Virus genome (UHGV): UHGV-0339891
DNA from: a virus
Reading direction: 5' to 3' (one strand)
DNA length: 17,122 nt
In this document: positions 1 to 13,771 of the stretch, in pieces
How the letters are laid out: each line of letters begins with the position of its first letter
Numbering within the stretch: the stretch's first letter is position 1
Translations under genes and position numbers: made by a program
Notes under the pieces: model-generated
Told to the model about the DNA's origin: nothing
Seen by the model: the letters and a program-made list of their open reading frames with translations, nothing else
The model's database searches: none

Positions 1-147
1 TGATGCTGAATTTCTGAATCCCATAGCATCTGGCTGTTCTCCGGTACTGGTTACAGCTATAAAGCGGTCATGAAAACAAACCTTGAACCCGTTGCGCTTA
101 AGGAACTTGTACGCAATCTGACAGAGTTCGCGGTGTGTTAACGCCAT
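1..147 (-). CDS. Hypothetical prophage protein, partial (C-terminus runs off the window start)
   Basis: Minus-strand ATG at 147..145 preceded by GGAGGG (plus 152-157); reads MALTHRELCQIAYKFLKRNGFKV... open to position 1; start lies 2 nt downstream of the upstream gene's stop. Confidence 0.4.
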   Translation of the reverse strand, partial: MALTHRELCQIAYKFLKRNGFKVCFHDRFIAVTSTGEQPDAMGFRNSAS

Positions 148-148
148 A

Positions 149-541
149 TCACCCTCCTTTGATGCGAATGCCTGTAGCGCGGATTGCATCGATGACTTCA
201 GAAACTTTGTATGCCATTACCGTTTGGTAATCCTCGTGAAAATCTGTTCGATGAAGCATGCTGCTACGTTCTGGGAGCGATATTTCCCGCGCTTCCAGTT
301 CAGCAATGCGCTTCTCTGCGACTTCCAGCGCATTTACCAGATCATCAACGGTTCCAGCCGCTTGGCGTGCGTAATCTGTAATTGCCAGCTCGCATTCAAT
401 TTCAGTTCCGTTTTCGTTGGTGTGGCAAATAGCAAAGTAATCGGAGTCGATTTCGTTATCAGCCAAACTCCTAAGCGTGTCGGCAACCAGCACTCCGTTT
501 TCAATCAGCATCTCTGTTGCGCGTTTGTCGATGTTGCTCAT
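149..541 (-). CDS. Hypothetical Ea22-region protein (130 aa), shares MSNID N-terminus and AEKRIAELE segment with the neighbouring gene
   Basis: ORF track 149..541; ATG start; start overlaps the stop of the upstream gene (538..541). Confidence 0.55.
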   Translation of the reverse strand: MSNIDKRATEMLIENGVLVADTLRSLADNEIDSDYFAICHTNENGTEIECELAITDYARQAAGTVDDLVNALEVAEKRIAELEAREISLPERSSMLHRTDFHEDYQTVMAYKVSEVIDAIRATGIRIKGG

Positions 542-1401
542 TGCGCGGCCTCCTGGCGGTCTATGCGTTCAATTTCGGCCAGAATAAGTGCGCCAGCTTT
601 CACAAGGTCACGACGCGGCCCAGATTGCTTCCACCAATCAGGAGCCCACGGCCAATGCGCTGGCGTTGAGAAGCCTTGATTGTGTGCGCTAATCGCATAG
701 CAAGCTGCAGCATCTGCCAGCTCACCGTTTTGATAGGCGTCGTCATGCTCCGGTGTCCAACCCTCAACAGCCCTCTGCCGCTGACGTTCTGATATCACAT
801 CCAGAAGTGCAGGATTGAACGCCAGCACCTCCAGTTCAGCAATCCGCTTCTCTGCGGCTTCCAGCTTCTCGCGCATATCGTCAACGTACTCGACCAGAGA
901 TCCGCCAGCAGGAATTTCGCATTCCTCGACCAGTTGGAAGTAGATATCAGCTGCGGCCCGTGTGTTGCTATGCCTAGCGTCGCCCATCTCACCTTCACGA
1001 AGAGCATCGCGTTCGGCGGTAAGATTGGCTATTTTGCTGTCTTTTCCTTCCAGCTCAACGCGAAGCCTCCCAACCGTAAGCGCAATATCCTCGTTCTCCT
1101 GGTCGCGGCGTTTGATGTATTGCTGGTTTCTTTCCCGTTCATCCAGTAATGCCAGCACGGTAGCCGGACTGGCTGCGGCGATGAATTCAGCATTGGCCTG
1201 CTGTTCCATTTGGAAATCTTCATCGAAACCGCTTTCAGGATGCGCTCCTTCAATTCTGCAAATAGGAATATATCCAGCAACTTCACGATGAATTAGTGCA
1301 TCATCACCATCAAATCGGCCCTTTCCATATTCGAGCGACCACTCACCACACGTTGCTTTTTCTGCCTTTTCACGCAGTGCCTGATAGTCAATATTGCTCA
1401 C
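538..1401 (-). CDS. Ea22-like prophage protein (287 aa), coiled-coil centre with a Trp/His-rich C-terminal domain
   Basis: ORF track; N-terminus [21 protein letters not shown] typical of lambdoid Ea22-like proteins (recalled, not searched); apparent GTG start at 1401 overlapping the upstream stop. Confidence 0.55.
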   Translation of the reverse strand: MSNIDYQALREKAEKATCGEWSLEYGKGRFDGDDALIHREVAGYIPICRIEGAHPESGFDEDFQMEQQANAEFIAAASPATVLALLDERERNQQYIKRRDQENEDIALTVGRLRVELEGKDSKIANLTAERDALREGEMGDARHSNTRAAADIYFQLVEECEIPAGGSLVEYVDDMREKLEAAEKRIAELEVLAFNPALLDVISERQRQRAVEGWTPEHDDAYQNGELADAAACYAISAHNQGFSTPAHWPWAPDWWKQSGPRRDLVKAGALILAEIERIDRQEAAQ

Positions 1402-1856
1402 TGGTTGCCTCCTTGGCGTAACTGGGCGGCGAACTCATCAGCACCAAGTGCAATCATTTTGCAGACTGATGCTCCTCCATCATTCGTTCTAAGATGGCTG
1501 GAAAACATCTCTACACCCTGCGCCCTCACTTCAGCCAGGAAGGCGTCGGTGGCTGGTGTTTCAGTGAACTCACTAACCCAGTCGGGTCCAAATTCTTCGG
1601 CGCACATCTTATCGAACTCACGCTCAGATTCTTTCAGCTCTGCATTCTCAGCAGCCAGCGCTGCGCACTTAGCCTCAAGGTTGTCAATCGTGATTCCAGC
1701 AGAACGACACTCCCGCAACGCCGTTTCTAGTTTTGATTCAAGTTCACCAAACTTACGGACAAGATATTCAGCGTTTGTTTCGTTAACCTTTAAATCTCGG
1801 GGGATGCATTTACCTTTCAGAAATCCATCCATCTCAATTAGTGTCATTTGTTTCAT
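1398..1856 (-). CDS. Hypothetical coiled-coil prophage protein (about 152 aa from ATG MKQMTL)
   Basis: ORF track 1398..1874 (GTG); preferred ATG at 1856..1854 overlaps the TGA of the upstream small ORF (ATGA). Confidence 0.45.
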
Positions 1857-2017
1857 TTTTTCCCACTCCGCCACATCGCATTCAGATATTTGTTTTGATT
1901 CACTGATGGAAAAGAATTTCTCTTAAGCAATTCCTCTCTCGATGGCATTGGCTTTACGCGTTGGCGAATAATCATTTCTGCCGGAAGAATGCCGGGATTG
2001 TATGCAAGTCCTCTCAT
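1853..2017 (-). CDS. Small hypothetical protein (54 aa)
   Basis: Not in ORF track (<60 aa); ATG at 2017..2015 preceded by AAGAGGAA with 7-nt spacing; stop overlaps the next start. Confidence 0.3.
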
Positions 2018-2033
2018 GGTAAATTCCTCTTTG

Positions 2034-2348
2034 TTAATTTATTCGTATGCCTGTTCTCTCTTCATCAAGTTTTTTTAGCTTGTATCGCATAGCTCTTACT
2101 GAATAAATTGAGCGGCAGGTTGCAATTGCTATTTCTTCTGCGGAGAACTTACCGAAAAGTGATACTTCGGCTCTTGTCCATCGTCTTCCACGAAGTCGGC
2201 TAACAATGTCAGCGCCAATCCTTGTTGCTTTCGCCATTACTGCTTTCTCAGTCCTTTCCAGTTTTTCAGCGATAACTTCAACTGGCATTGTTGCCGCTAC
2301 TTCGCGCAAGAAATCGACTTCCCATTTCTCCCAAGGAGTCTTTTTCAT
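2034..2348 (-). CDS. Hypothetical prophage protein (104 aa)
   Basis: ORF track; ATG start at 2348; no clear SD. Confidence 0.45.
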
Positions 2349-2359
2349 AGGCGATACCG

Positions 2360-2842
2360 TTATTTGATAAGAAGTGAAGGTTTCCCAACTTTGAGTTGAG
2401 CGCCGGGGATATTTATTCCTGCTTTTAGTTGGTGTTTGATTGCCAGTTTGTCGGCTTTAATTGTCGTTTCAAACTCAACGTATTCAGGAGGAAGGGCGCT
2501 TGAGTCGATTATTTCTACAGTTTCTGACGGTTTGCGGATTGTTACCTGGTGAATACCTGCTCGAATCTTTTTCTTGCCTACCATTTCAAGCGATGACGCT
2601 ATATATGATTTGATGCTGTCAATCTTATTTTGAATTACTGCGGCTCGCTCATTCAGTGACTTTGCCTCTTCCTTGAGGCGTTCAGCATAACCAGATTCAT
2701 TTTTAATGACGGAAAGAAGTTGCTCTATTTTATCGGTAAATTCTCCTTCCATGCCTTCTATTGTGTCAGCAATCATCTCTGGTTCTAAATCTGAATCCAT
2801 CAATTTTGCGTATTCATTGGCAATTTCATACAGTTTGCTCAC
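2360..2842 (-). CDS. Siphovirus Gp157-family protein (about 160 aa)
   Basis: ORF track 2360..2848 (TTG); better start GTG at 2842 with GGAGG 6 nt upstream; size, coiled-coil character and position next to recT fit the Gp157 family (recalled). Confidence 0.5.
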   Translation of the reverse strand: MSKLYEIANEYAKLMDSDLEPEMIADTIEGMEGEFTDKIEQLLSVIKNESGYAERLKEEAKSLNERAAVIQNKIDSIKSYIASSLEMVGKKKIRAGIHQVTIRKPSETVEIIDSSALPPEYVEFETTIKADKLAIKHQLKAGINIPGAQLKVGKPSLLIK

Positions 2843-3728
2843 TGGCAACCTCCAGTTTCTCTTTGCATTCTATGTAAATGGCTTGTACGTTCTGCTGCAA
2901 TTTCATTCCAGATGTCAGGCGATATGCTTCTGCAAAATATCGCTTCAAATCATCCATGTTTTCTGCCTGAGCCATTTCATCACAAAGAAGTTGTGCTTTA
3001 TCCATTATTTCCTGCTGGCGTTTCCGTTTATCTTCGCGGATATCTTCCTCTGATTTGTGCGGCATTACTGGTTCCTGATGCATACCTTCATCTTCGTTAA
3101 GCAGGTGAATGGCATTATCCAGTCGCTGGGCTTTAGGCCAGTATTTGCTGGCGCGTTTAACTATGGTTTTACGCGCCATCTCTTCCCAGAATGTCTTCCA
3201 CGGTCCATTCTTTGCCTTGCTCGTTGCTTCCACAGCTTTAATTTCTGCCAGACTCATTTCTTCAGTCAGGTAGTCACCATCTGCTGTTTTAACCGTACAA
3301 TAACCACCAACAATAGAGCCTCGCTCACCAAATGCGTTGTATTTGTGGGTTGGTGCTGAATCAAGGCCGTTTGATTCATAGGTGTCGTTTGAGTACACCA
3401 GTTTGCATTGCCCCCACTTAATTGATCCTGTCGACTGTGCAAGGTGAAGTAATCCCATATAGCTGATATCAAGGCAAACCATGCCGTCGCGCGGAACCAG
3501 ATAAGCAAGTTTGCTGGCCGGGTTTAAGGTGATGCCGATCGCCGCAACATTGATGATGGCGTTCTGTGCGCTGGTTGGATTTGCCAGTGCCGTTTTAGCC
3601 AGGTAATCATTTTTCTGGAAATACTGAATTGCAAACTGGCTTTCCTTAGCCCATGTCACCGTCTGTTCAGTCAATGCTCCGCAGAATAACTGCTCCTGCT
3701 GTTTAACGAATTCAACGATATTGCTCAT
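2826..3728 (-). CDS. recT: RecT-family single-strand annealing recombinase
   Basis: 300-aa ORF; C-terminal motif NGPWKTFWEEMARKTIVKRASKYWP resembles E. coli RecT NGPWVTHWEEMAKKTAIRRLFKYLP (recalled); ATG overlaps the upstream stop (ATGA). Confidence 0.75.
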   Translation of the reverse strand: MSNIVEFVKQQEQLFCGALTEQTVTWAKESQFAIQYFQKNDYLAKTALANPTSAQNAIINVAAIGITLNPASKLAYLVPRDGMVCLDISYMGLLHLAQSTGSIKWGQCKLVYSNDTYESNGLDSAPTHKYNAFGERGSIVGGYCTVKTADGDYLTEEMSLAEIKAVEATSKAKNGPWKTFWEEMARKTIVKRASKYWPKAQRLDNAIHLLNEDEGMHQEPVMPHKSEEDIREDKRKRQQEIMDKAQLLCDEMAQAENMDDLKRYFAEAYRLTSGMKLQQNVQAIYIECKEKLEVASEQTV

Positions 3729-4036
3729 GCAGCTTCTCCAAAAATGTGTCTGCGTTTAAATATTGCGAAGGCATATTCAGCCTTAACTCTTTCGGTTATT
3801 GCATCCCAGAACCATTCATCGGCTTTTTCCTGATAGTTACAATCATCATCTTCCAGCCAGTCGATAGCATCCTTAGTATGTTCATCTGGTTTATATGAGC
3901 GAAGCATTTCGCTTATTGGGTCGCAACGTTTGCAGAGGCGATCAACTTCACTGTTGATTCGTTCGTAATCTTCATCAGTAAAACTTGCGATTATTTGCGA
4001 TATTTCACGCTTATCATTCAGAGTCAGAATCATCAT
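3725..4036 (-). CDS. Small strongly acidic protein (103 aa, net charge about -10) in the position of lambda gam
   Basis: ORF track; ATG ATG start with GGAG 4 nt upstream; 25 D/E vs 15 K/R by my count; no recognisable similarity to lambda Gam. Confidence 0.5.
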   Translation of the reverse strand: MMILTLNDKREISQIIASFTDEDYERINSEVDRLCKRCDPISEMLRSYKPDEHTKDAIDWLEDDDCNYQEKADEWFWDAITERVKAEYAFAIFKRRHIFGEAA

Positions 4037-4117
4037 CTTTCTCCTGTTCTTTGTGCTGATTGAGCATTTTGTTCATCTGACGAATGAATTCTTCGTCTGA
4101 CCAGTTATCTGTAAAAC

Positions 4118-4270
4118 TCATTTCCTGCGATACCACGGAAGGTTGATAGCTGATTTCATCGCTTTATTTGCTTCAAGCCACATTTTTGAATCACCAATAA
4201 ATCTGGCTATTACTGCTTTGTTCTGTGCAGCACGAAGCATCTGGTGATTGATGGCTATTTCATTGCGCAT
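4118..4270 (-). CDS. kil: Kil-like small protein (50 aa), called by position and size
   Basis: Translated by hand: MRNEIAINHQMLRAAQNKAVIARFIGDSKMWLEANKAMKSAINLPWYRRK; lies immediately downstream of and overlapping the cIII-like gene, as kil does in lambda. Confidence 0.4.
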   Translation of the reverse strand: MRNEIAINHQMLRAAQNKAVIARFIGDSKMWLEANKAMKSAINLPWYRRK

Positions 4271-4389
4271 AACGTCTCCAGTTGTTTCTTTGCTGCTCTG
4301 ATTAATTGTTTAACTCGGCGTGATAATTCAGATTCGTGCGGGTAGAAAGCGGACATGACGCCGCTACCCGCGAGCTGAAAGTGCATCAT
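4252..4389 (-). CDS. cIII: cIII-like small protein (45 aa)
   Basis: Translated by hand: MMHFQLAGSGVMSAFYPHESELSRRVKQLIRAAKKQLETLCAMK; the central segment resembles the lambda CIII helix (ESLLERITRKLRDGWKRL, recalled). Confidence 0.5.
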
Positions 4390-4464: not shown

Positions 4465-4776
4465 TTAGGCGGCTGATGTTTCTTCTTTCAGGCTTTCGAG
4501 ATATTTACGTGGGTCGTCGTAACATTGGCATTCGCTGTACCAATCCACCCAGCGATCAGTAAGCCCCATCTCTGATAAATCTTCATCGGTAAGGCTCTCA
4601 TCCCACATCTCAAGGCCGTTAGCATTGCAGTAATCAGGCTTGATGTTGTTGTCATACTGAAAGGCGTCATAATCAGCCAGTGCATCCATCAGGCGAACAC
4701 CCTCTTCAACACTTGCCACTTCTACAATGAACGGTTTCATAGGTACTTGCGGGATATGCCAGACACGTAATTTCAT
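4465..4776 (-). CDS. Small strongly acidic protein (103 aa from MKLRVWH, net charge about -14)
   Basis: ORF track 4465..4830; preferred ATG at 4776..4774 with GGAGG upstream; the upstream extension of the track ORF runs through a terminator hairpin. Confidence 0.5.
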   Translation of the reverse strand: MKLRVWHIPQVPMKPFIVEVASVEEGVRLMDALADYDAFQYDNNIKPDYCNANGLEMWDESLTDEDLSEMGLTDRWVDWYSECQCYDDPRKYLESLKEETSAA

Positions 4777-4786
4777 ATTTCCTCCG

Positions 4787-4815
4787 TCAAAAAAATCGCC
4801 CTCACACTGGAGGGC
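4787..4815 (-). terminator. Intrinsic terminator inside the pL operon
   Basis: Minus-strand stem GCCCTC/GAGGGC (plus 4798-4803 / 4810-4815) followed by U7 (plus A-run 4789-4795). Confidence 0.5.
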
Positions 4816-4908
4816 AAAGAAGATTTCCAATAATCAGAACAAGTCGGCTCCTGTTTAGTTACGAGCGACATTGCTCACATAGCAGACTCGCAAATCTGCT
4901 ATAGGCGC

Positions 4909-5415: not shown

Positions 5416-5865
5416 TTACTTAACCAATGATGCTGCATATTCGATAAGGTAAAGCTTTGGGGCCAGCCAAATTTTTAACCAAGTCATATTGGTTACTACA
5501 CCAATAATAAAAATCCCCCACAGAGTCAAAACTCCAACCAATGGCATGATAAGAAGGTTAATATCTCCTTTGCTATCCCAAACCATTGTCGGCCTGTATT
5601 TTGGATTTCCCCTCTCCCATGAGTATCCTTCATCACCGATTTTACCTGTCTCAACTCTTTGGCACTGCTTCTTCATAAACCAGAAAACCAGTGGGATTGT
5701 TAGAATGGCTATTAATGTTTTAATCAGACTGTCAACCATATTCCATAGCAGCAACTGATGAACAACATCAGGAATCTGTGCCTGGCTAAATGAAACAGCC
5801 GCGTCTATTCCATTACTGGCTTTTTGCAGTAGTTCTACGAGAATCTTGTTTGCTTGTTCTTCCAT
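5416..5865 (-). CDS. Predicted two-TM inner-membrane protein (149 aa), first gene after N; possible superinfection-exclusion type function
   Basis: ORF track; ATG preceded by GAGGTG; two hydrophobic stretches (LIKTLIAILTIPLVFWF and LLIMPLVGVLTLWGIFIIGVV). Confidence 0.55.
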   Translation of the reverse strand: MEEQANKILVELLQKASNGIDAAVSFSQAQIPDVVHQLLLWNMVDSLIKTLIAILTIPLVFWFMKKQCQRVETGKIGDEGYSWERGNPKYRPTMVWDSKGDINLLIMPLVGVLTLWGIFIIGVVTNMTWLKIWLAPKLYLIEYAASLVK

Positions 5866-6660: not shown

Positions 6661-6695
6661 GAAAAGAAAACCCGGCGCTGAGGCCGGGTGTTTTT
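6661..6695. terminator. Bidirectional intrinsic terminator ending the cI operon
   Basis: Stem CCCGGC/GCCGGG (6671-6676 / 6683-6688) flanked by TGTTTTT on plus and TTTTCTTTTC on minus. Confidence 0.55.
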
Positions 6696-6990
6696 AGTCT
6701 TTTCTTTTGCTTAGCATTTCGTCGATTTCTAAGTCAATACGATATTGATCTATTGCTTTTCTCTCGTTTGGGGTTGGTATTTTATACTGTTCAATTAGAT
6801 CTGTTGTGTATTTTATTTCATCTAATGTGATTTTTATATCAGATAGAATCTCTTTTATATCAATTAGATGCTCTTCTTCTTTTGCGCGATTAGAGCTATG
6901 TTCAATCATTTGAGATAGCTTTTTGCTAATGCTTAGCAAAACAAAAAGAATGATGACCAAAACAACAACAAAAACTATCAGAAATTCCAT
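6694..6990 (-). CDS. Small membrane-anchored coiled-coil protein (98 aa), a moron in the rexAB position downstream of cI
   Basis: ORF track; ATG with GGAGG 4 nt upstream; N-terminal TM helix EFLIVFVVVLVIILFVLLSI then a charged helical domain; AT-rich; terminator 6 nt after the stop. Confidence 0.55.
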   Translation of the reverse strand: MEFLIVFVVVLVIILFVLLSISKKLSQMIEHSSNRAKEEEHLIDIKEILSDIKITLDEIKYTTDLIEQYKIPTPNERKAIDQYRIDLEIDEMLSKRKD

Positions 6991-7030: not shown

Positions 7031-7738
7031 TTACCAACTATGAGACGACCAGAATACTCTGCCAATAATCCTTACGGTTTTATGAAATTCATCTCTATCC
7101 ATTACTTCATCCGGGTACTCTTCGCGATTTATTGATCTGATTATCACCGATGTAGGGGTGGCGATTAATGTTTTTACTCGTAACAAATCAGACTGGCAAA
7201 TAGCGTAGGTTTTACCATCTCTGATTGTGGTATCTTGCGTGTTAACACCAACAACATCGCCATCGTGAAGCGTTGGTTCCATGCTTTGCCCTACAACCCT
7301 AACTAGCTTGGCTGATCTTTCAGATACTCCCATCTTTTTCAGATAGTGCTTTCTGAAAACCAAAGAGAACTCCGATGATTCCTCTAGCTCGCAGCTACCG
7401 CTTCCAGCTGAAAGCGAAACGTTAAGAAGAGGCAACGCAACAAACTCGTCATCGTTTCTTTTAATGTCTTCCCATACCACAGCTTTTAAAGATGACTCAC
7501 GGACATTGGATGGTTCTTCATGTGCACCATCCCTCATTTCACCAATACCAGAACTAAGCCATTCAGGACGCACTTTTAAAGCATTGGCTAATTCAACCAT
7601 CTTGCGAGATCCGTTTGTTTTACCGGACGACATCTTCTGTATGGCTGGCTGAGATATTCCAACCATGTCAGCAAGCTGTGATTGTGATACCCCTGCTGAG
7701 CTCATGGCTGCATTTAGTCTTTCTGCGAATGTTTTCAT
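7031..7738 (-). CDS. cI: cI-type prophage repressor (HTH plus LexA-like S24 peptidase domain)
   Basis: ORF track 7031..7768 (TTG); ATG at 7738 (MKTFAERL); HTH segment QSQLADMVGISQPAIQKM; Ala-Gly site in LSAGSG; Ser in GQSMEP and Lys in LLRVKTL. Confidence 0.8.
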   Translation of the reverse strand: MKTFAERLNAAMSSAGVSQSQLADMVGISQPAIQKMSSGKTNGSRKMVELANALKVRPEWLSSGIGEMRDGAHEEPSNVRESSLKAVVWEDIKRNDDEFVALPLLNVSLSAGSGSCELEESSEFSLVFRKHYLKKMGVSERSAKLVRVVGQSMEPTLHDGDVVGVNTQDTTIRDGKTYAICQSDLLRVKTLIATPTSVIIRSINREEYPDEVMDRDEFHKTVRIIGRVFWSSHSW

Positions 7739-7745
7739 ACCCACA

Positions 7746-7816
7746 AATCTATAACTACGGTTATCCAAAGTAAAATAACAAAGGTTATTGCTATTTTTTA
7801 TAACTTGAGTTATCTT
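7746..7816. promoter_or_regulatory. OR region: three operators with divergent pRM and pR
   Basis: Operators ATAACTACGGTTAT 7751-7764, ATAACAAAGGTTAT 7775-7788, ATAACTTGAGTTAT 7800-7813; pR -35 TTGCTA 7788-7793, 17 bp, -10 TATCTT 7811-7816; pRM (minus) -35 TTTACT 7769-7774, 17 bp, -10 TAGATT 7746-7751, giving a near-leaderless cI. Confidence 0.6.
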
Positions 7817-11802: not shown

Positions 11803-12213
11803 GTGAAGCAAACAATCTTCCTCCGAACTAAGCAACAACAGCAAGCTGCAATAAATGCCATCCTCGCAACACCACTCGATAAAGACAATCCAGTCACGAT
11901 CCACATTACTGACTACAAGCGAAATCTTGACCAGAACGCAAAATTTCACGCGATGCTGGCGGATATCGCTCGTCAGGTTCAATGGTGCGATAAATGGCTA
12001 AAACCAGAACAATGGAAGGTTTTGTTGATCAGCGGTCATGCAGTGGCAACAAAACAGGAAGCTGATGTTTTGCCCGGGCTTGAAGGCGAATACGTCAACA
12101 TTCGCGAAAGTAGCGCGCAGATGAGTGTGAAGCGTATGGCAAGTCTGATTGAGTACACGACAGCATGGGCTATTGGTCAGGGTGTCAGATTTACCGACAG
12201 GAGGTACGAATGA
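11803..12213 (+). CDS. ninB: NinB (Orf) recombination mediator
   Basis: GTG start with AAGGAG upstream; motif [20 protein letters not shown] matches lambda NinB LDQNRKLWACLGDVSRQVEW (recalled). Confidence 0.7.
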
Positions 12214-12924: not shown

Positions 12925-13129
12925 TTACCTGAAATGGTATCTCTGCCACCGCTGGTTAATTAAGTTTGCTGTAAAAGACTGGATGACAGCGGATGCCAAC
13001 AAGCTTAAGCAAAGAAAAGACTATTACTACGCCAGAATGAAGGAAAACTACTGCTCAATTCGCACTCGCATATTTATTAAAAAAGACCTTCAGTCAATTC
13101 TTCAATTGCGAGGGAAGGTAAATGGCTAA
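12917..13129 (+). CDS. Hypothetical AT-rich small protein (70 aa)
   Basis: ORF track; ATG overlapping the ninF 3' end. Confidence 0.35.
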   Translation: MSDYLKWYLCHRWLIKFAVKDWMTADANKLKQRKDYYYARMKENYCSIRTRIFIKKDLQSILQLRGKVNG

Positions 13130-13412
13130 CCTACGCAAAGAAGCGCGCGGCAGAGAATGCCAGGTACGTATTTACGGCGTATGCAATGGCAATCCTGAAA
13201 CTACAGTTCTGGCACATTACCGGATGGCTGGAATTTGCGGAACGGGAATGAAACCTGACGACATGATCGGCGCATGGGCTTGTAGCGCGTGTCACGATGA
13301 AATCGACCGACGCACCCATAACCTCGACAACAAAGACGCCAGACTTTACCACCTCGAAGGCGTGATCAGGACGCAGGCGATACTGCTGAAGGAGGGGAAG
13401 ATTAAGTCATGA
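13122..13412 (+). CDS. YbcO-like (DUF1364-type) Cys/His-rich putative nuclease
   Basis: ORF track; RGRECQVRIYGVCNGNPETTVLAH... with conserved Cys/His pattern (recalled as DLP12 YbcO-like). Confidence 0.55.
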   Translation: MANLRKEARGRECQVRIYGVCNGNPETTVLAHYRMAGICGTGMKPDDMIGAWACSACHDEIDRRTHNLDNKDARLYHLEGVIRTQAILLKEGKIKS

Positions 13413-13771
13413 ACGAATATCAGTTTGTGCTTCCATACCCGCCGTCGGTGAACACCTACTGGCGAAGACGGGGAAGCCAATACTACATCAGCGATAAAGG
13501 CCAGAAATACCGAAAAGACGTTCAGCAAATCATCCGCCAACTCAAGTTAGACATTTTCACCAAATCACGACTACGAATCAAAATAATCGCAGACATTCCG
13601 GACTCACGTCGCCGCGATCTCGACAACATCCTTAAATGCTTGCTCGACTCCCTTATCCACGCCGGATTTGCGGAAGACGACGAGCAATTCGATGACATTC
13701 GCGTAATTCGTGGTGTGAAAGTACCAGGCGGAAGGCTTGGAATAAAAATCACCGAACTGGAGAACGTATGA
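13409..13771 (+). CDS. rusA: RusA Holliday-junction resolvase
   Basis: ORF track; DSRRRDLDNILKCLLDSLIHAGF matches E. coli RusA [23 protein letters not shown] (recalled). Confidence 0.8.
   Translation: MNEYQFVLPYPPSVNTYWRRRGSQYYISDKGQKYRKDVQQIIRQLKLDIFTKSRLRIKIIADIPDSRRRDLDNILKCLLDSLIHAGFAEDDEQFDDIRVIRGVKVPGGRLGIKITELENV

Follow-up and report, generated by a model that had tools for sequence, protein, structure and literature searches.

Which partner serves a phage RecT annealase when no exonuclease gene stands next to it? This question is raised by a P22-like/lambdoid prophage, of which we analyzed a 17,122-nt stretch of UHGV-0339891 (hereafter, the window), with a recombination module located at 2034-4036 on the minus strand. 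An earlier note on this DNA had presented a nuclease-free RecT as something unusual, which the literature contradicts. Indeed, a survey published in 2025 on the recombination modules of lambdoid phages counted 84 out of 246 as devoid of a nuclease, and named HK140, scored as lacking one over its whole genome, as a case where a RecT-type annealase (SAP-4) works with MuGam in the absence of a phage nuclease (PMC12315714). The identical block of Gally is also in print, where recT-gam-abc1 is named as its recombination module (PMC9928086).

The recT-Gp157 arrangement is thus real, common, and already described and, as it was first framed, a RecT without an exonuclease partner matters little, being common and annotated in several sequenced phages. 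The published accounts of the HK140/Gally-type module contain no analysis of the RecT C-terminus, leave p103 (the gene preceding recT) uncounted, and give no mechanism for the missing nuclease. Shuffling of partner domains was suggested in the survey, and its analysis was left out of scope there (PMC12315714). A derivative of Gally deleted for recT-gam-abc1 was made and its phage stocks were used in a lysogenisation test (PMC9928086), which suggests that the phage can do without the module in the laboratory and is silent on mechanism. What is new here is that the last ~85 residues of RecT switch together with the downstream gene, between a Bet-type Exo-binding form and a Gp157-specific form.

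Module organisation and the search for an exonuclease

The gene order of the window is cI-N-...-cIII-kil, then the module, then DUF2737 and the ea genes; neither the int/xis end nor any structural gene is included. The module consists of four tightly packed genes, encoding p103, RecT, Gp157, and an Abc1-like protein (Table 1), and is expressed from pL, downstream of cIII and kil. The position of kil is the same in P22, lambda, and phi80. On the other side, the DUF2737 protein is 75% identical to P22 orf56, which comes after abc2 in P22. No Rfam family, tRNA gene, or Chi site was detected in the whole window.

Table 1. Coordinates of the module genes, of the two parts of RecT, and of the flanking genes in the window.
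Feature	Coordinates	Strand	Matches	Place in the locus
cIII	4255..4389	-	PF08134, E 2e-30	upstream boundary of the recombination-module slot, early-left operon
kil	4118..4270	-	PF06301 Lambda_Kil, E 1.7e-20	final conserved gene ahead of the module
40-aa ORF	4014..4136	-	phrog_17766, 7.6e-16	occupies the P22 arf position
p103 (103 aa)	3725..4036	-	phrog_3486, 4e-59	
RecT (300 aa)	2826..3728	-	PF03837; phrog_148; TIGR00616; PDB 7UB2	
RecT residues 1-215, predicted single-strand annealing core	3084..3728	-	PF03837 over residues 31-214	
RecT residues 216-300 + stop, CTD_G	2826..3083	-		C-terminal domain specific to the Gp157-paired form
Gp157-family protein (160 aa, GTG start)	2360..2842	-	PF05565, E 2.5e-38	exonuclease-gene position
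Abc1-like protein (104 aa)	2034..2348	-	phrog_323, 5e-20; phrog_11492	
DUF2737 (54 aa), homologue of P22 orf56	1853..2017	-	PF10930, E 2.6e-31	downstream boundary of the module slot

By profile search, the 300-aa ORF is a RecT family annealase, above the curated cut-offs (PF03837, E 3.2e-33 and 115.4 bits for a cut-off of 24; TIGR00616, 76.8 bits for a cut-off of 52.65; phrog_148, 7.8e-91), and its residues 34-199 match the solved RecT structure 7UB2 (E 7.6e-5); an annealing activity is predicted. The following ORF matches PF05565 Sipho_Gp157 with 132.1 bits (gathering 28.6) over positions 1-162 of 162. These PF03837 and PF05565 matches bear out the succession of a recT and a Gp157-family gene, as read from the sequence in the earlier note. 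The start of gp157 is most likely the GTG at 2842 and not the TTG at 2848, because a GGAGG motif lies 6 nt upstream of it and because the resulting length, 160 aa, is that of all homologues. With this predicted start, gp157 and the recT stop overlap by 17 nt, and the ribosome-binding site lies within recT.

The gene on the other side of recT, p103, is a conserved member of the recombination module. It ends in an ATGA overlap with the start of recT, has no match in Pfam, NCBIfam, or PDB, and its homologues in Serratia and Cronobacter modules are 38-50% identical. In other phages, this slot is held by a RecBCD inhibitor of the phi80 GamL type and, in our species survey, the place upstream of recT was taken by p103, by a GamL-like gene, or by neither. 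One ORF of the survey (L117) weakly matched both the p103 and the GamL HMMs (5e-5). We nevertheless rejected p103 as a divergent GamL (hhalign probability of 0.2%, no PDB match), the likeness being positional only. Similarly, the 40-aa ORF located between kil and p103, whose N-terminal 20 aa match phrog_2123, was rejected as an Arf, since its similarity to P22 Arf extends over just 12 residues (E 0.007).

The last gene of the module encodes a 104-aa protein with two helix-turn-helix-like repeats and a weak match to the LuxR-type HTH of NarL (5.7e-4). This protein and P22 Abc1 both match phrog_323 (5.4e-20 and 1.3e-23, respectively), a family to which Mu gp9 also belongs. The alignment of its family against P22 Abc1 gives an hhalign probability of 89% (E 2e-6, 76 columns), and the comparison with Mu gp9 a probability of 92%; pairwise BLASTP against P22 Abc1 or Abc2 finds nothing. 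Judged from these comparisons, it is a remote homologue of P22 Abc1, seen only at the profile level, and an accessory gene of the module. Its counterpart in Gally is annotated "similar to P22 Abc1". Of the recT neighbours described as unknown small ORFs, the Abc1-like gene, DUF2737, and p103 can all be placed by family or by position, if not by function.

We searched the locus for a nuclease by several means. The minus-strand ORFs in 149-4389 gave no exonuclease profile match in Pfam, PHROGs, or NCBIfam, and a six-frame tblastn of the whole 17 kb window, queried with lambda Exo, phi80 Exo, a PD-(D/E)XK exonuclease from Vibrio, and a nuclease of the DUF3799/RecE-like kind, returned nothing better than E 0.09. 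No exonuclease of the lambda-Exo, YqaJ, or RecE type was thus found anywhere in the 17 kb window, in agreement with what had been noticed for the minus-strand ORFs. In particular, the lambda-Exo/YqaJ or RecE/DUF3799 gene that adjoins the annealase in lambda Red or RecET systems has no counterpart next to this recT. The window ORFs gave no profile match to SSB and, in the module, lambda Gam, phi80 GamL, and P22 Abc2 gave no Pfam/PHROG match and no significant tblastn match. At the edge of the window, the ORF at 1-147 runs off the sequence and is the start of a 171-aa protein, a full-length homologue of which carries a PD...ExK motif. It was rejected as the missing nuclease: it has no exonuclease profile match, no more than 2 out of the 80 related recT loci carry it, and it occurs in Stx phages too. 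No exonuclease is annotated in the early-left region of Kapi1, between cI and xis with the attachment site, or in that of Gally, between c2 and int.

The same composition is found well beyond this prophage. The block is present at ~92-94% DNA identity in Kapi1, mEpX1, HK140, Gally, Louie, and Dewey, and the module further occurs in phages and prophages of Pantoea, Klebsiella, Serratia, Cronobacter, and Vibrio. Relatives of the window RecT, confirmed by tblastn, are encoded on 417 IMG/VR contigs. Among the best 80 of these 417 loci, all have Gp157 and p103 (80/80 for each) and 73 have the Abc1-like gene; on both strands, the surrounding 5 kb never contain a gene for Exo, DUF3799, Abc2, lambda Gam, or GamL. 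Together, these searches show the identities of the genes, the conservation of the module, and the absence of an exonuclease.

The RecT tail co-varies with the downstream gene

In phi80, in ArgO145 and other Stx phages, in two Vibrio/Yersinia phages, and in ENT47670, an exonuclease gene follows recT. Comparing these Exo-paired RecTs with the window RecT, we observed that the N-terminal cores (residues 1-215) are 48-81% identical. On the contrary, the identity of the tails across the two forms is only 7-25%, for 35-78% inside the Gp157 form. The Exo-form tail is the C-terminal, Exo-binding domain of lambda Bet: hhalign relates them with a probability of 99.8% (E 6e-28), and the phi80 RecT tail matches the Bet C-terminal domain entries 8TFU and 6M9K in PDB. 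This domain of lambda Bet binds lambda Exo and SSB (PMC6393309). With the window-type tail, the hhalign probability against lambda Bet falls to 0.1%, and residues 216-300 of the window RecT have no match in PDB. The Bet-type tail that docks Exo and SSB in lambda Red/RecET-type systems is therefore missing from the window RecT and, judged by these alignments, a domain of ~85 aa unrelated to it, which we call CTD_G, stands in its place.

We then compared tail type and downstream gene in 42 loci from different species, whose counts are not phylogenetically independent. Among the 17 loci with a Gp157-type tail, Gp157 comes next in 16 (in the remaining one, the contig ends) and Exo in none; among the 21 with an Exo-type tail, Exo comes next in 21/21 and Gp157 in none. 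The downstream gene hence agrees with the RecT tail type in 37/37 loci (kinship uncorrected), with cores up to 81% identical across the two forms. This demonstrates that the RecT tail co-varies strictly with its downstream neighbour. The p103 and Abc1-like genes accompany RecTs of either form, Exo or Gp157, and are also found with a DUF3799 nuclease module in SEN22.

Because the type of the RecT tail switches together with the neighbouring gene, and because Gp157 lies in the Exo slot, we conclude that Gp157 is the cognate partner of RecT and takes the place of the exonuclease in this role. Direct binding between the two proteins would be expected, CTD_G being a putative Gp157-docking domain, and the prediction that follows from the tail switching is that the RecT tail binds Gp157. 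The partner had been proposed to be absent, host-supplied, or non-canonical. The evidence favours the last two options; Gp157, which occupies the Exo slot and co-varies with the RecT tail, had been overlooked as the partner.

Gp157, a probable DNA-end binder, and its presumed role beside RecT

The Gp157 family is very large, with 12,413 clusters at 50% identity, and its members occur in Firmicutes as well as in Proteobacteria; all of the 143 diverse homologues that we collected match PF05565. The window protein falls into phrog_253, labelled 'Mu Gam-like end protection', and Mu Gam itself into phrog_491. In the AF2 model of Gp157 (pLDDT 79), a helix of 68 residues leads into a beta domain and, when this model is compared by element order with the AF2 model of Mu Gam, the secondary-structure elements come in the same order and at the same positions.

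At the sequence level, the window Gp157 has no match to PF07352 (Mu Gam) at E <= 1, and sub-threshold matches to this profile appear in 39 of the 143 diverse family members (best E 5.3e-6). RasGAP_C likewise scores 1.5e-5 in 33 family members, and some of the PF07352 cross-matches could reflect coiled-coil composition. Using a shallow Gp157 alignment, hhalign against Mu Gam gave a probability of 1.2%; with a deeper one, the probability against the Gam profile rose to 17-29% (E 6e-4 to 1.5e-3), and the weak HMM and hhalign matches are collinear, over Gam positions 47-159. The Mu Gam profile used is itself shallow, the 120 Mu Gam homologues listed being all at least 72% identical. Sequence searches of PDB, either with the single Gp157 or with the 143-sequence profile, returned coiled-coil noise alone and no Gam-like entry; fold searches of PDB gave no Gam-like entry either, and no Gam-annotated protein is present among the best 50 BFVD matches listed. 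The relationship between Gp157 and Mu Gam is thus only moderately supported by the alignments and models, and the homology is not statistically secure.

Only L6, K40, Y82, P120, K134, G144, and G149 are conserved at 90% or more across the 143 members, so the family has no conserved catalytic set. Gp157 is probably a dimeric DNA-end binder of the Mu Gam/Ku type and not a nuclease.

The explanation that we favour as a whole, to which we give a probability of roughly 0.6, is that RecT works with Gp157 as an end binder on single-stranded DNA supplied by the host, without any phage nuclease. The N-terminal core of RecT would supply single-strand annealing. The Gp157 coiled-coil dimer, a presumed distant relative of Mu Gam and Ku, would bind the ends of double-stranded DNA, where it may shield the phage DNA from RecBCD and the other exonucleases of the host and would hold RecT through the RecT C-terminal domain. 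As for the ssDNA, we can only infer its source, which might be host functions (e.g., resection of the RecQ/RecJ type) or gaps at the replication fork. A stronger version, which we put forward tentatively, is that RecT and Gp157 make up a separate type of two-component recombinase: the obligate docking partner of the annealase would be an end binder of the Ku/Mu Gam kind and no exonuclease, joined to it through a dedicated RecT tail that would have evolved as a modular substitute for the Bet-type Exo/SSB-binding domain.

Gp157 could otherwise be an adaptor that contacts RecT with one side and a host helicase-nuclease (RecBCD, RecJ, or SbcCD) with the other and so recruits it actively, in the manner of P22 Abc2, which by binding RecC turns RecBCD into the resection engine of Erf. 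Of the other readings, this one survives best, and we still hold it to be unlikely. The module occupies the exact place of P22 arf-erf-abc1-abc2 and retains an Abc1-like gene, nuclease-free P22-type modules are common (PMC12315714), the co-variation of the RecT tail with Gp157 implies a protein-protein contact, and a family-wide set of catalytic residues is lacking, all of which would suit an adaptor. However, no similarity between Gp157 and Abc2 could be detected, and neither the window nor the 80 related loci gave a tblastn match to Abc2. Moreover, a family that spans Firmicutes and Proteobacteria argues against one specific host-protein target, the end-processing nucleases being AddAB in the former and RecBCD in the latter. 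Finally, what weak homology signal there is leads to Mu Gam, an inhibitor that blocks RecBCD without redirecting it (PMC12315714).

That Gp157 would be itself a non-canonical nuclease, with a divergent minimal alpha-beta-beta-beta-alpha-beta (PD-(D/E)XK-like) fold resecting ends for RecT, seems to us improbable. It does occupy the exact gene slot of lambda-type Exo beside closely related RecTs, the order of elements in its AF2 model (helix, three strands, helix, strands) resembles the PD-(D/E)XK core, and H100, D115, E125, K131, and H139 are invariant in the enterobacterial members. Across the 143 diverse members, however, no acidic or histidine residue is conserved, the D...(D/E)xK motif is absent from strands 2 and 3, and no nuclease family appears among the Pfam cross-matches. 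The weak Foldseek matches in BFVD to a PD-(D/E)XK protein, an 'Exonuclease', and COG5377 (ranks 23, 43, and 46; E 0.012-0.38) all have E values over 0.01 and extend across ~100-120 columns of proteins that are far larger, and the better-supported remote relative, Mu Gam, is not an enzyme.

We give as little credit to the absence of any partnership, in which RecT would act alone on the ssDNA of replication forks, as in oligonucleotide recombineering, with Gp157, p103, and the Abc1-like protein each serving anti-defence or host takeover independently, as neighbours by chance. Early-left operons do have a mosaic make-up of small accessory genes, p103 and the Abc1-like gene assort with Exo and Gp157 forms and with the SEN22 DUF3799 module, and end-binding proteins do serve by themselves as anti-RecBCD factors (PMC12407980). 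Nevertheless, the match between RecT tail and downstream gene in every one of the 37 loci, the 17-nt overlap with the ribosome-binding site inside recT, and the proven binding of a partner by the alternative tail (PMC6393309) would be difficult to account for if RecT and Gp157 had no specific relationship.

Least probable by far is a canonical exonuclease encoded elsewhere in the prophage: the int/xis end and all structural genes do lie beyond the 17 kb window, and the 1-147 ORF does have a PD...ExK-type homologue, but lambdoid recombination genes form contiguous early-left clusters and HK140 is scored as nuclease-free genome-wide (PMC12315714), no exonuclease is annotated in the Kapi1 and Gally early-left regions, the PD...ExK gene is almost never found at related loci (2/80), and the window RecT wholly lacks an Exo-docking domain.

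If RecT and Gp157 do act as a two-component recombinase, the RecT tail would be a swappable cassette for partner selection, an exonuclease-free route of end-directed annealing recombination would be defined, and a compact or less toxic recombineering pair might become available. For recombineering with such RecTs, their own Gp157 may be needed for dsDNA substrates or may have to be left out for oligonucleotides. Gp157-like end-binding partners may also affect the sensitivity to defence systems; Gabija, for instance, is licensed by end-binding proteins of phages (PMC12407980).

Comparison with known recombination systems

The modules of HK140, mEpX1, Gally, and Kapi1 have the same genes in the same order as the window, and lie likewise between kil/cIII and DUF2737 with the ea genes. 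Only the flanking mosaic genes differ (gp17 superinfection-exclusion, Ead/Ea22 variants, and the PD...ExK gene at 1-147).

Mu Gam and Gp157 are of similar size (174 and 160 aa) and, in the models, both would begin with a long coiled-coil helix, after which comes a beta domain of small size. Mu Gam, which belongs to PF07352, is not paired with an annealase; on the contrary, Gp157, a PF05565 member, is paired with RecT, and its end binding is only predicted. Both Mu gam and the window gp157 adjoin a phrog_323 (Abc1-like) gene.

In phages of Firmicutes, genes for gp157, Mu gam-like, DUF1351, or DUF2483 proteins adjoin erf and sak4 (PMC8093625). There, as in the window, a Gp157-family gene stands beside an annealase without an exonuclease, and analogous functions have been proposed (PMC8093625). 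However, the Firmicutes gp157 lies upstream of Erf/Sak4, usually with an SSB gene, whereas that of the window, in Enterobacterales, lies downstream of RecT and comes without an SSB gene. For RecT, the companions reported in Firmicutes phages are mostly YqaJ or DUF3799 nucleases (PMC8093625).

The window module fits the P22 type as defined in the 2025 survey, i.e., an anti-RecBCD gene and an annealase in a contiguous early-left cluster, with neither nuclease nor SSB (PMC12315714). The anti-RecBCD label applies to it because Gp157 is called 'MuGam', as the survey does for HK140, and we could verify it only partly here. P22 arf-erf-abc1-abc2 occupies the same slot, from kil to orf56/DUF2737, and also contains an Abc1-family gene; both phages have an annealase without a phage nuclease and would therefore rely on the host for the processing of DNA ends. 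Three differences separate them. The P22 annealase is Erf and that of the window is RecT; the anti-RecBCD factor of P22, Abc2, binds RecC and remodels RecBCD, and a homologue of it was not found in the window; and abc1 lies between erf and abc2, whereas the Abc1-like gene of the window comes last in the module, after Gp157.

The GamL-RecT-Exo modules of phi80 and Stx phages and the lambda Red system (Gam-Bet-Exo) share with the window the operon position, the tight overlap of the annealase gene with that of its downstream partner, and the presence of an anti-RecBCD-type gene accompanying the annealase. In this comparison, the window RecT core shows 52-81% identity to the cores of the Exo-paired RecTs from phi80, ArgO145, ENT47670, and the Vibrio and Yersinia phages. 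It is in the tail of RecT and in the gene that follows that they part: the phi80/Stx RecTs carry a lambda Bet-type tail and are followed by an Exo gene of ~226 aa, whereas the window RecT, with no nuclease beside it, carries an unrelated tail and is followed by Gp157.

Gene content of the recombination block

The window represents the early region of a temperate Enterobacterales phage, P22-like/lambdoid in type. The earlier note had seen in it a recT gene adjoined by a Gp157-family gene, with no recognisable exonuclease nearby, and our searches confirm both points. The 300-aa RecT matched PF03837 (E 3.2e-33), TIGR00616 (above cut-off), phrog_148 (7.8e-91) and the PDB RecT entry 7UB2, and the product of the next gene matched Sipho_Gp157 (PF05565) over its full length (E 2.5e-38). 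The likely gp157 start is a GTG at 2842: it is preceded, 6 nt upstream and inside recT, by GGAGG, and gives a protein of 160 aa, as in all homologues, with a 17-nt recT/gp157 overlap. No ORF between 149 and 4389 matched an exonuclease family of Pfam, PHROGs or NCBIfam, and four tblastn queries (lambda Exo, phi80 Exo, a Vibrio PD-(D/E)XK exonuclease, a DUF3799/RecE-like nuclease) gave no counterpart anywhere in the window.

Features of the window
Feature	Position	Strand	Remark
171-aa gene, start	1-147	-	runs off the window
Ead/Ea22-type gene	149-541	-	
Ead/Ea22-type gene	538-1401	-	
DUF2737, Ead/Ea22 gene, other "ea" genes		-	early-left operon, after recombination block
Gp157	2360-2842	-	recombination block
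RecT	2826-3728	-	recombination block
p103 (103 aa)	3725-4036	-	recombination block
kil	4118-4270	-	early-left operon
cIII	4255-4389	-	early-left operon
P22 gp17-type exclusion gene	4465-4830	-	early-left operon
Predicted membrane protein	5416-5865	-	149 aa, phrog_3054
N-like antiterminator		-	early-left operon, after cI-type repressor
Predicted membrane protein	6694-6990	-	98 aa, phrog_18389
cI-type repressor	7031-7768	-	start of early-left operon
cro, cII, DnaB-type helicase		+	
NinB/Orf	11803-12213	+	nin region
NinE, NinX, NinF		+	
YbcO, RusA	13122-13771	+	nin region, overlapping genes
NinH, Q, holin, Rz		+	

Upstream of recT lies p103 (phrog_3486), with an ATGA stop/start overlap, and a 104-aa Abc1-like gene follows gp157. 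In the 80 IMG/VR contigs whose RecT is closest to that of the window (at least 92% identity), Gp157 and p103 are always present and the Abc1-like gene is found in 73; Exo, DUF3799, Abc2, lambda Gam and GamL, searched within 5 kb, are in none. The p103-RecT-Gp157 trio also occurs in Cronobacter, Serratia and Pantoea prophages, p103 being 38-50% identical. The gene that follows Gp157 is of variable size there (64-132 aa); where tested (Cronobacter and Serratia loci), its product belongs to PHROGs 323/11492, like the 104-aa protein of the window.

The sole nuclease-like item of the early-left block searched is the gene entering the window at 1-147, whose 49 aa are 100% identical to Shigella phage 75/02 Stx gp71. 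A motif typical of PD-(D/E)XK nucleases, PD(40-41)...E53-x-K55, is present in its full-length 171-aa homologue, which falls in phrog_9263 with a weak match to phrog_5429 'DNA repair protein' and none to a Pfam or NCBIfam family. We ruled it out as a module member, because only 2 of the 80 related recT loci carry it.

Elsewhere, the nin region encodes YbcO (putative nuclease, PF07102), RusA (Holliday-junction resolvase) and NinB/Orf (recombination mediator), so that the phage has late-step recombination functions, though without a resection nuclease. The two adjoining Ead/Ea22-type genes, which encode coiled-coil proteins, have a common 'AEKRIAELE' segment and patchy matches to many overlapping PHROGs, typical of mosaic shuffling in that gene family. 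The 98-aa membrane protein is encoded directly downstream of the repressor gene, before the N-like gene, where exclusion or defence genes often lie in lambdoid phages. Rfam and tRNA scans of the whole window gave no matches.

RecT tail and downstream gene

Close RecT relatives take two forms, split by the downstream gene. In the Gp157 form (the window, PA-1, KO-TP1, Serratia and Cronobacter prophages, and Vibrio phage 1.247.A, whose RecT neighbour was recognised by the Gp157 profile, E 1e-45), RecT is matched over its whole length and Gp157 comes next. In the Exo form (phi80, ArgO145 and other Stx phages, Vibrio phage 1.178.O, Yersinia phage vB_YenM_25, Cronobacter phage ENT47670), the match is limited to the first ~215-230 residues, and an exonuclease gene of ~226-270 aa lies downstream, in most cases next to recT and in vB_YenM_25 separated from it by an inserted homing endonuclease. 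With the alignment divided at residue 215, identities between the two forms are 49-81% in the core and 7-25% in the tail; within the Gp157 form they are 50-91% and 35-78%.

An independent test covered 42 loci of different species from a genome collection and used HMMs of both tail types and of Gp157, Exo, p103, GamL and the Abc1-like protein. All 21 loci with an Exo-type tail have Exo next and never Gp157; among the 17 with a Gp157-type tail, Gp157 is next in 16 (the other contig ends there) and Exo in none. Four tails stayed unclassified. The classified loci show zero exceptions, in counts that are not phylogenetically independent. Both forms can be accompanied by the genes for p103, GamL and the Abc1-like protein.

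The Exo-type tail is the lambda Bet C-terminal domain (hhalign 99.8%, E 6e-28, Bet residues 184-259; for phi80 RecT, PDB entries 8TFU, E 6e-32, and 6M9K, E 2e-25), which binds lambda Exo and host SSB (PMC6393309). The window tail has no similarity to this domain (hhalign probability 0.1%) and no PDB match. Hence, the window RecT has lost the Exo-docking domain and carries another one, found only with Gp157. The simplest reading is that Gp157 would be the cognate partner of RecT, docked by its tail. Gene content and tail/partner co-variation are what the data show; that RecT and Gp157 form a true two-component recombinase, an annealase and an end-binder joined via a swappable tail, we hold at a probability of about 0.4.

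Gp157 as a putative end binder

Gp157 is labelled "Mu Gam-like end protection" in PHROGs and several genome annotations, a label that our results uphold in part. The family is very large, with 12,413 clusters (50% identity, E <= 1e-3), and 39 of 143 diverse members have sub-threshold matches to PF07352 (best E 5.3e-6); the window Gp157 itself has none. Weak matches of the Gam HMM are collinear across nearly the full length of Gp157, and hhalign reaches a probability of 29% (E 6e-4) in the C-terminal beta domain. The AF2 models (pLDDT 79 for Gp157, 75.5 for Mu Gam) agree in the order, and closely in the position, of their structural elements: a 60-68-residue helix, three strands, helices and terminal strand(s). 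On the other side, Mu Gam is placed in a different PHROG, coiled-coil composition yields spurious Pfam matches with scores comparable to the PF07352 cross-matches, PDB fold and profile searches with Gp157 gave no Gam-like entry, and none of the best 50 BFVD matches listed is annotated as Gam. On balance, Gp157 is probably a Gam/Ku-like end binder.

The module, transcribed from pL, would supply RecT, Gp157, p103 and the Abc1-like protein. Gp157 dimers could cap double-stranded ends (injected or rolling-circle DNA, breaks) and keep RecBCD off, as Mu Gam does (PMC12315714, PMC12407980). RecT would be tethered at the capped ends via its C-terminal domain and would pair single-stranded DNA, supplied by host resection or arising at replication forks, with a complementary strand by annealing. 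Both the binding events and the source of single-stranded DNA in this scheme are inferences. In the main rival explanation, Gp157 would recruit a host nuclease, like Abc2 in P22. That Gp157 is itself a nuclease is improbable: three of the 50 listed BFVD matches are weak ones to nuclease-annotated proteins, but conservation among the 143 diverse members is limited to L6, K40, Y82, P120, K134, G144 and G149, with no acidic or histidine set.

The window has no Chi site (GCTGGTGG) on either strand, which is uninformative by itself since only ~0.4 are expected by chance; it is in line with a published trend, Chi being mostly absent from lambdoid phages that encode an anti-RecBCD function. The gene for p103 occupies the slot of phi80 GamL-type RecBCD inhibitors in other phages. 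One Yokenella ORF (L117 3693-3989) matched both the p103 and the GamL HMMs (5e-5), and profile-profile comparison of the two was not significant (probability 0.2%); p103 may be a GamL analogue or a very divergent GamL relative.

The 104-aa protein shares phrog_323 with P22 Abc1 and Mu gp9. Its family aligns by hhalign with Abc1 (probability 89%, E 2e-6) and gp9 (92%), BLASTP detected nothing between the protein and Abc1 or Abc2, and the NarL LuxR-type helix-turn-helix is a weak match to the family profile. The gp9 gene lies directly upstream of gam in phage Mu (L010 5482-6325), so that an Abc1-like HTH gene beside a Gam-like gene recurs in Mu and the window (2034-2842), which hints at a functional pair.

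Comparison with known modules

The interval between kil and DUF2737/orf56 is a swap site with different modules in different phages. P22 has arf-erf-abc1-abc2 there, and Klebsiella phage KO-TP1 a GamL-type gene where p103 would be, then RecT and Gp157. In Salmonella phage SEN22 (L004 2803-4815), RecT and Gp157 are replaced by a DUF3799 RecE-like nuclease plus a 189-aa phrog_11517 protein, between the genes for p103 (94% identical) and the Abc1-like protein (91%). SEN22 is the prototype of the 'SSB + nuclease, no annealase' module type (PMC12315714), which makes the 189-aa protein a candidate SSB or annealase.

Kapi1, mEpX1, HK140 and Gally carry the same block as the window at ~92-94% DNA identity. 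In Gally, recT-gam-abc1 was named "the recombination module", and stocks of its deletion derivative were used in a lysogenisation test (Misson et al. 2023, PMC9928086). In Firmicutes phages, Gp157-family or Mu gam-like genes adjoin erf and sak4 (PMC8093625). Across 314 Enterobacteriales phages of a 325-phage panel, 13 functional types of recombination module were described, 84 of 246 modules being without nuclease (Zheng et al. 2025, PMC12315714). The gene arrangement was therefore already known. Of the earlier note's view of the partner, the lack of a phage exonuclease and the existence of a non-canonical partner stand, and the oddity does not, the recT-Gp157 block being a common, described module type. 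Shuffling of partner domains was deemed likely but outside scope by Zheng et al. (2025, PMC12315714), and the co-variation of RecT tail and partner supplies detail that the literature had anticipated.
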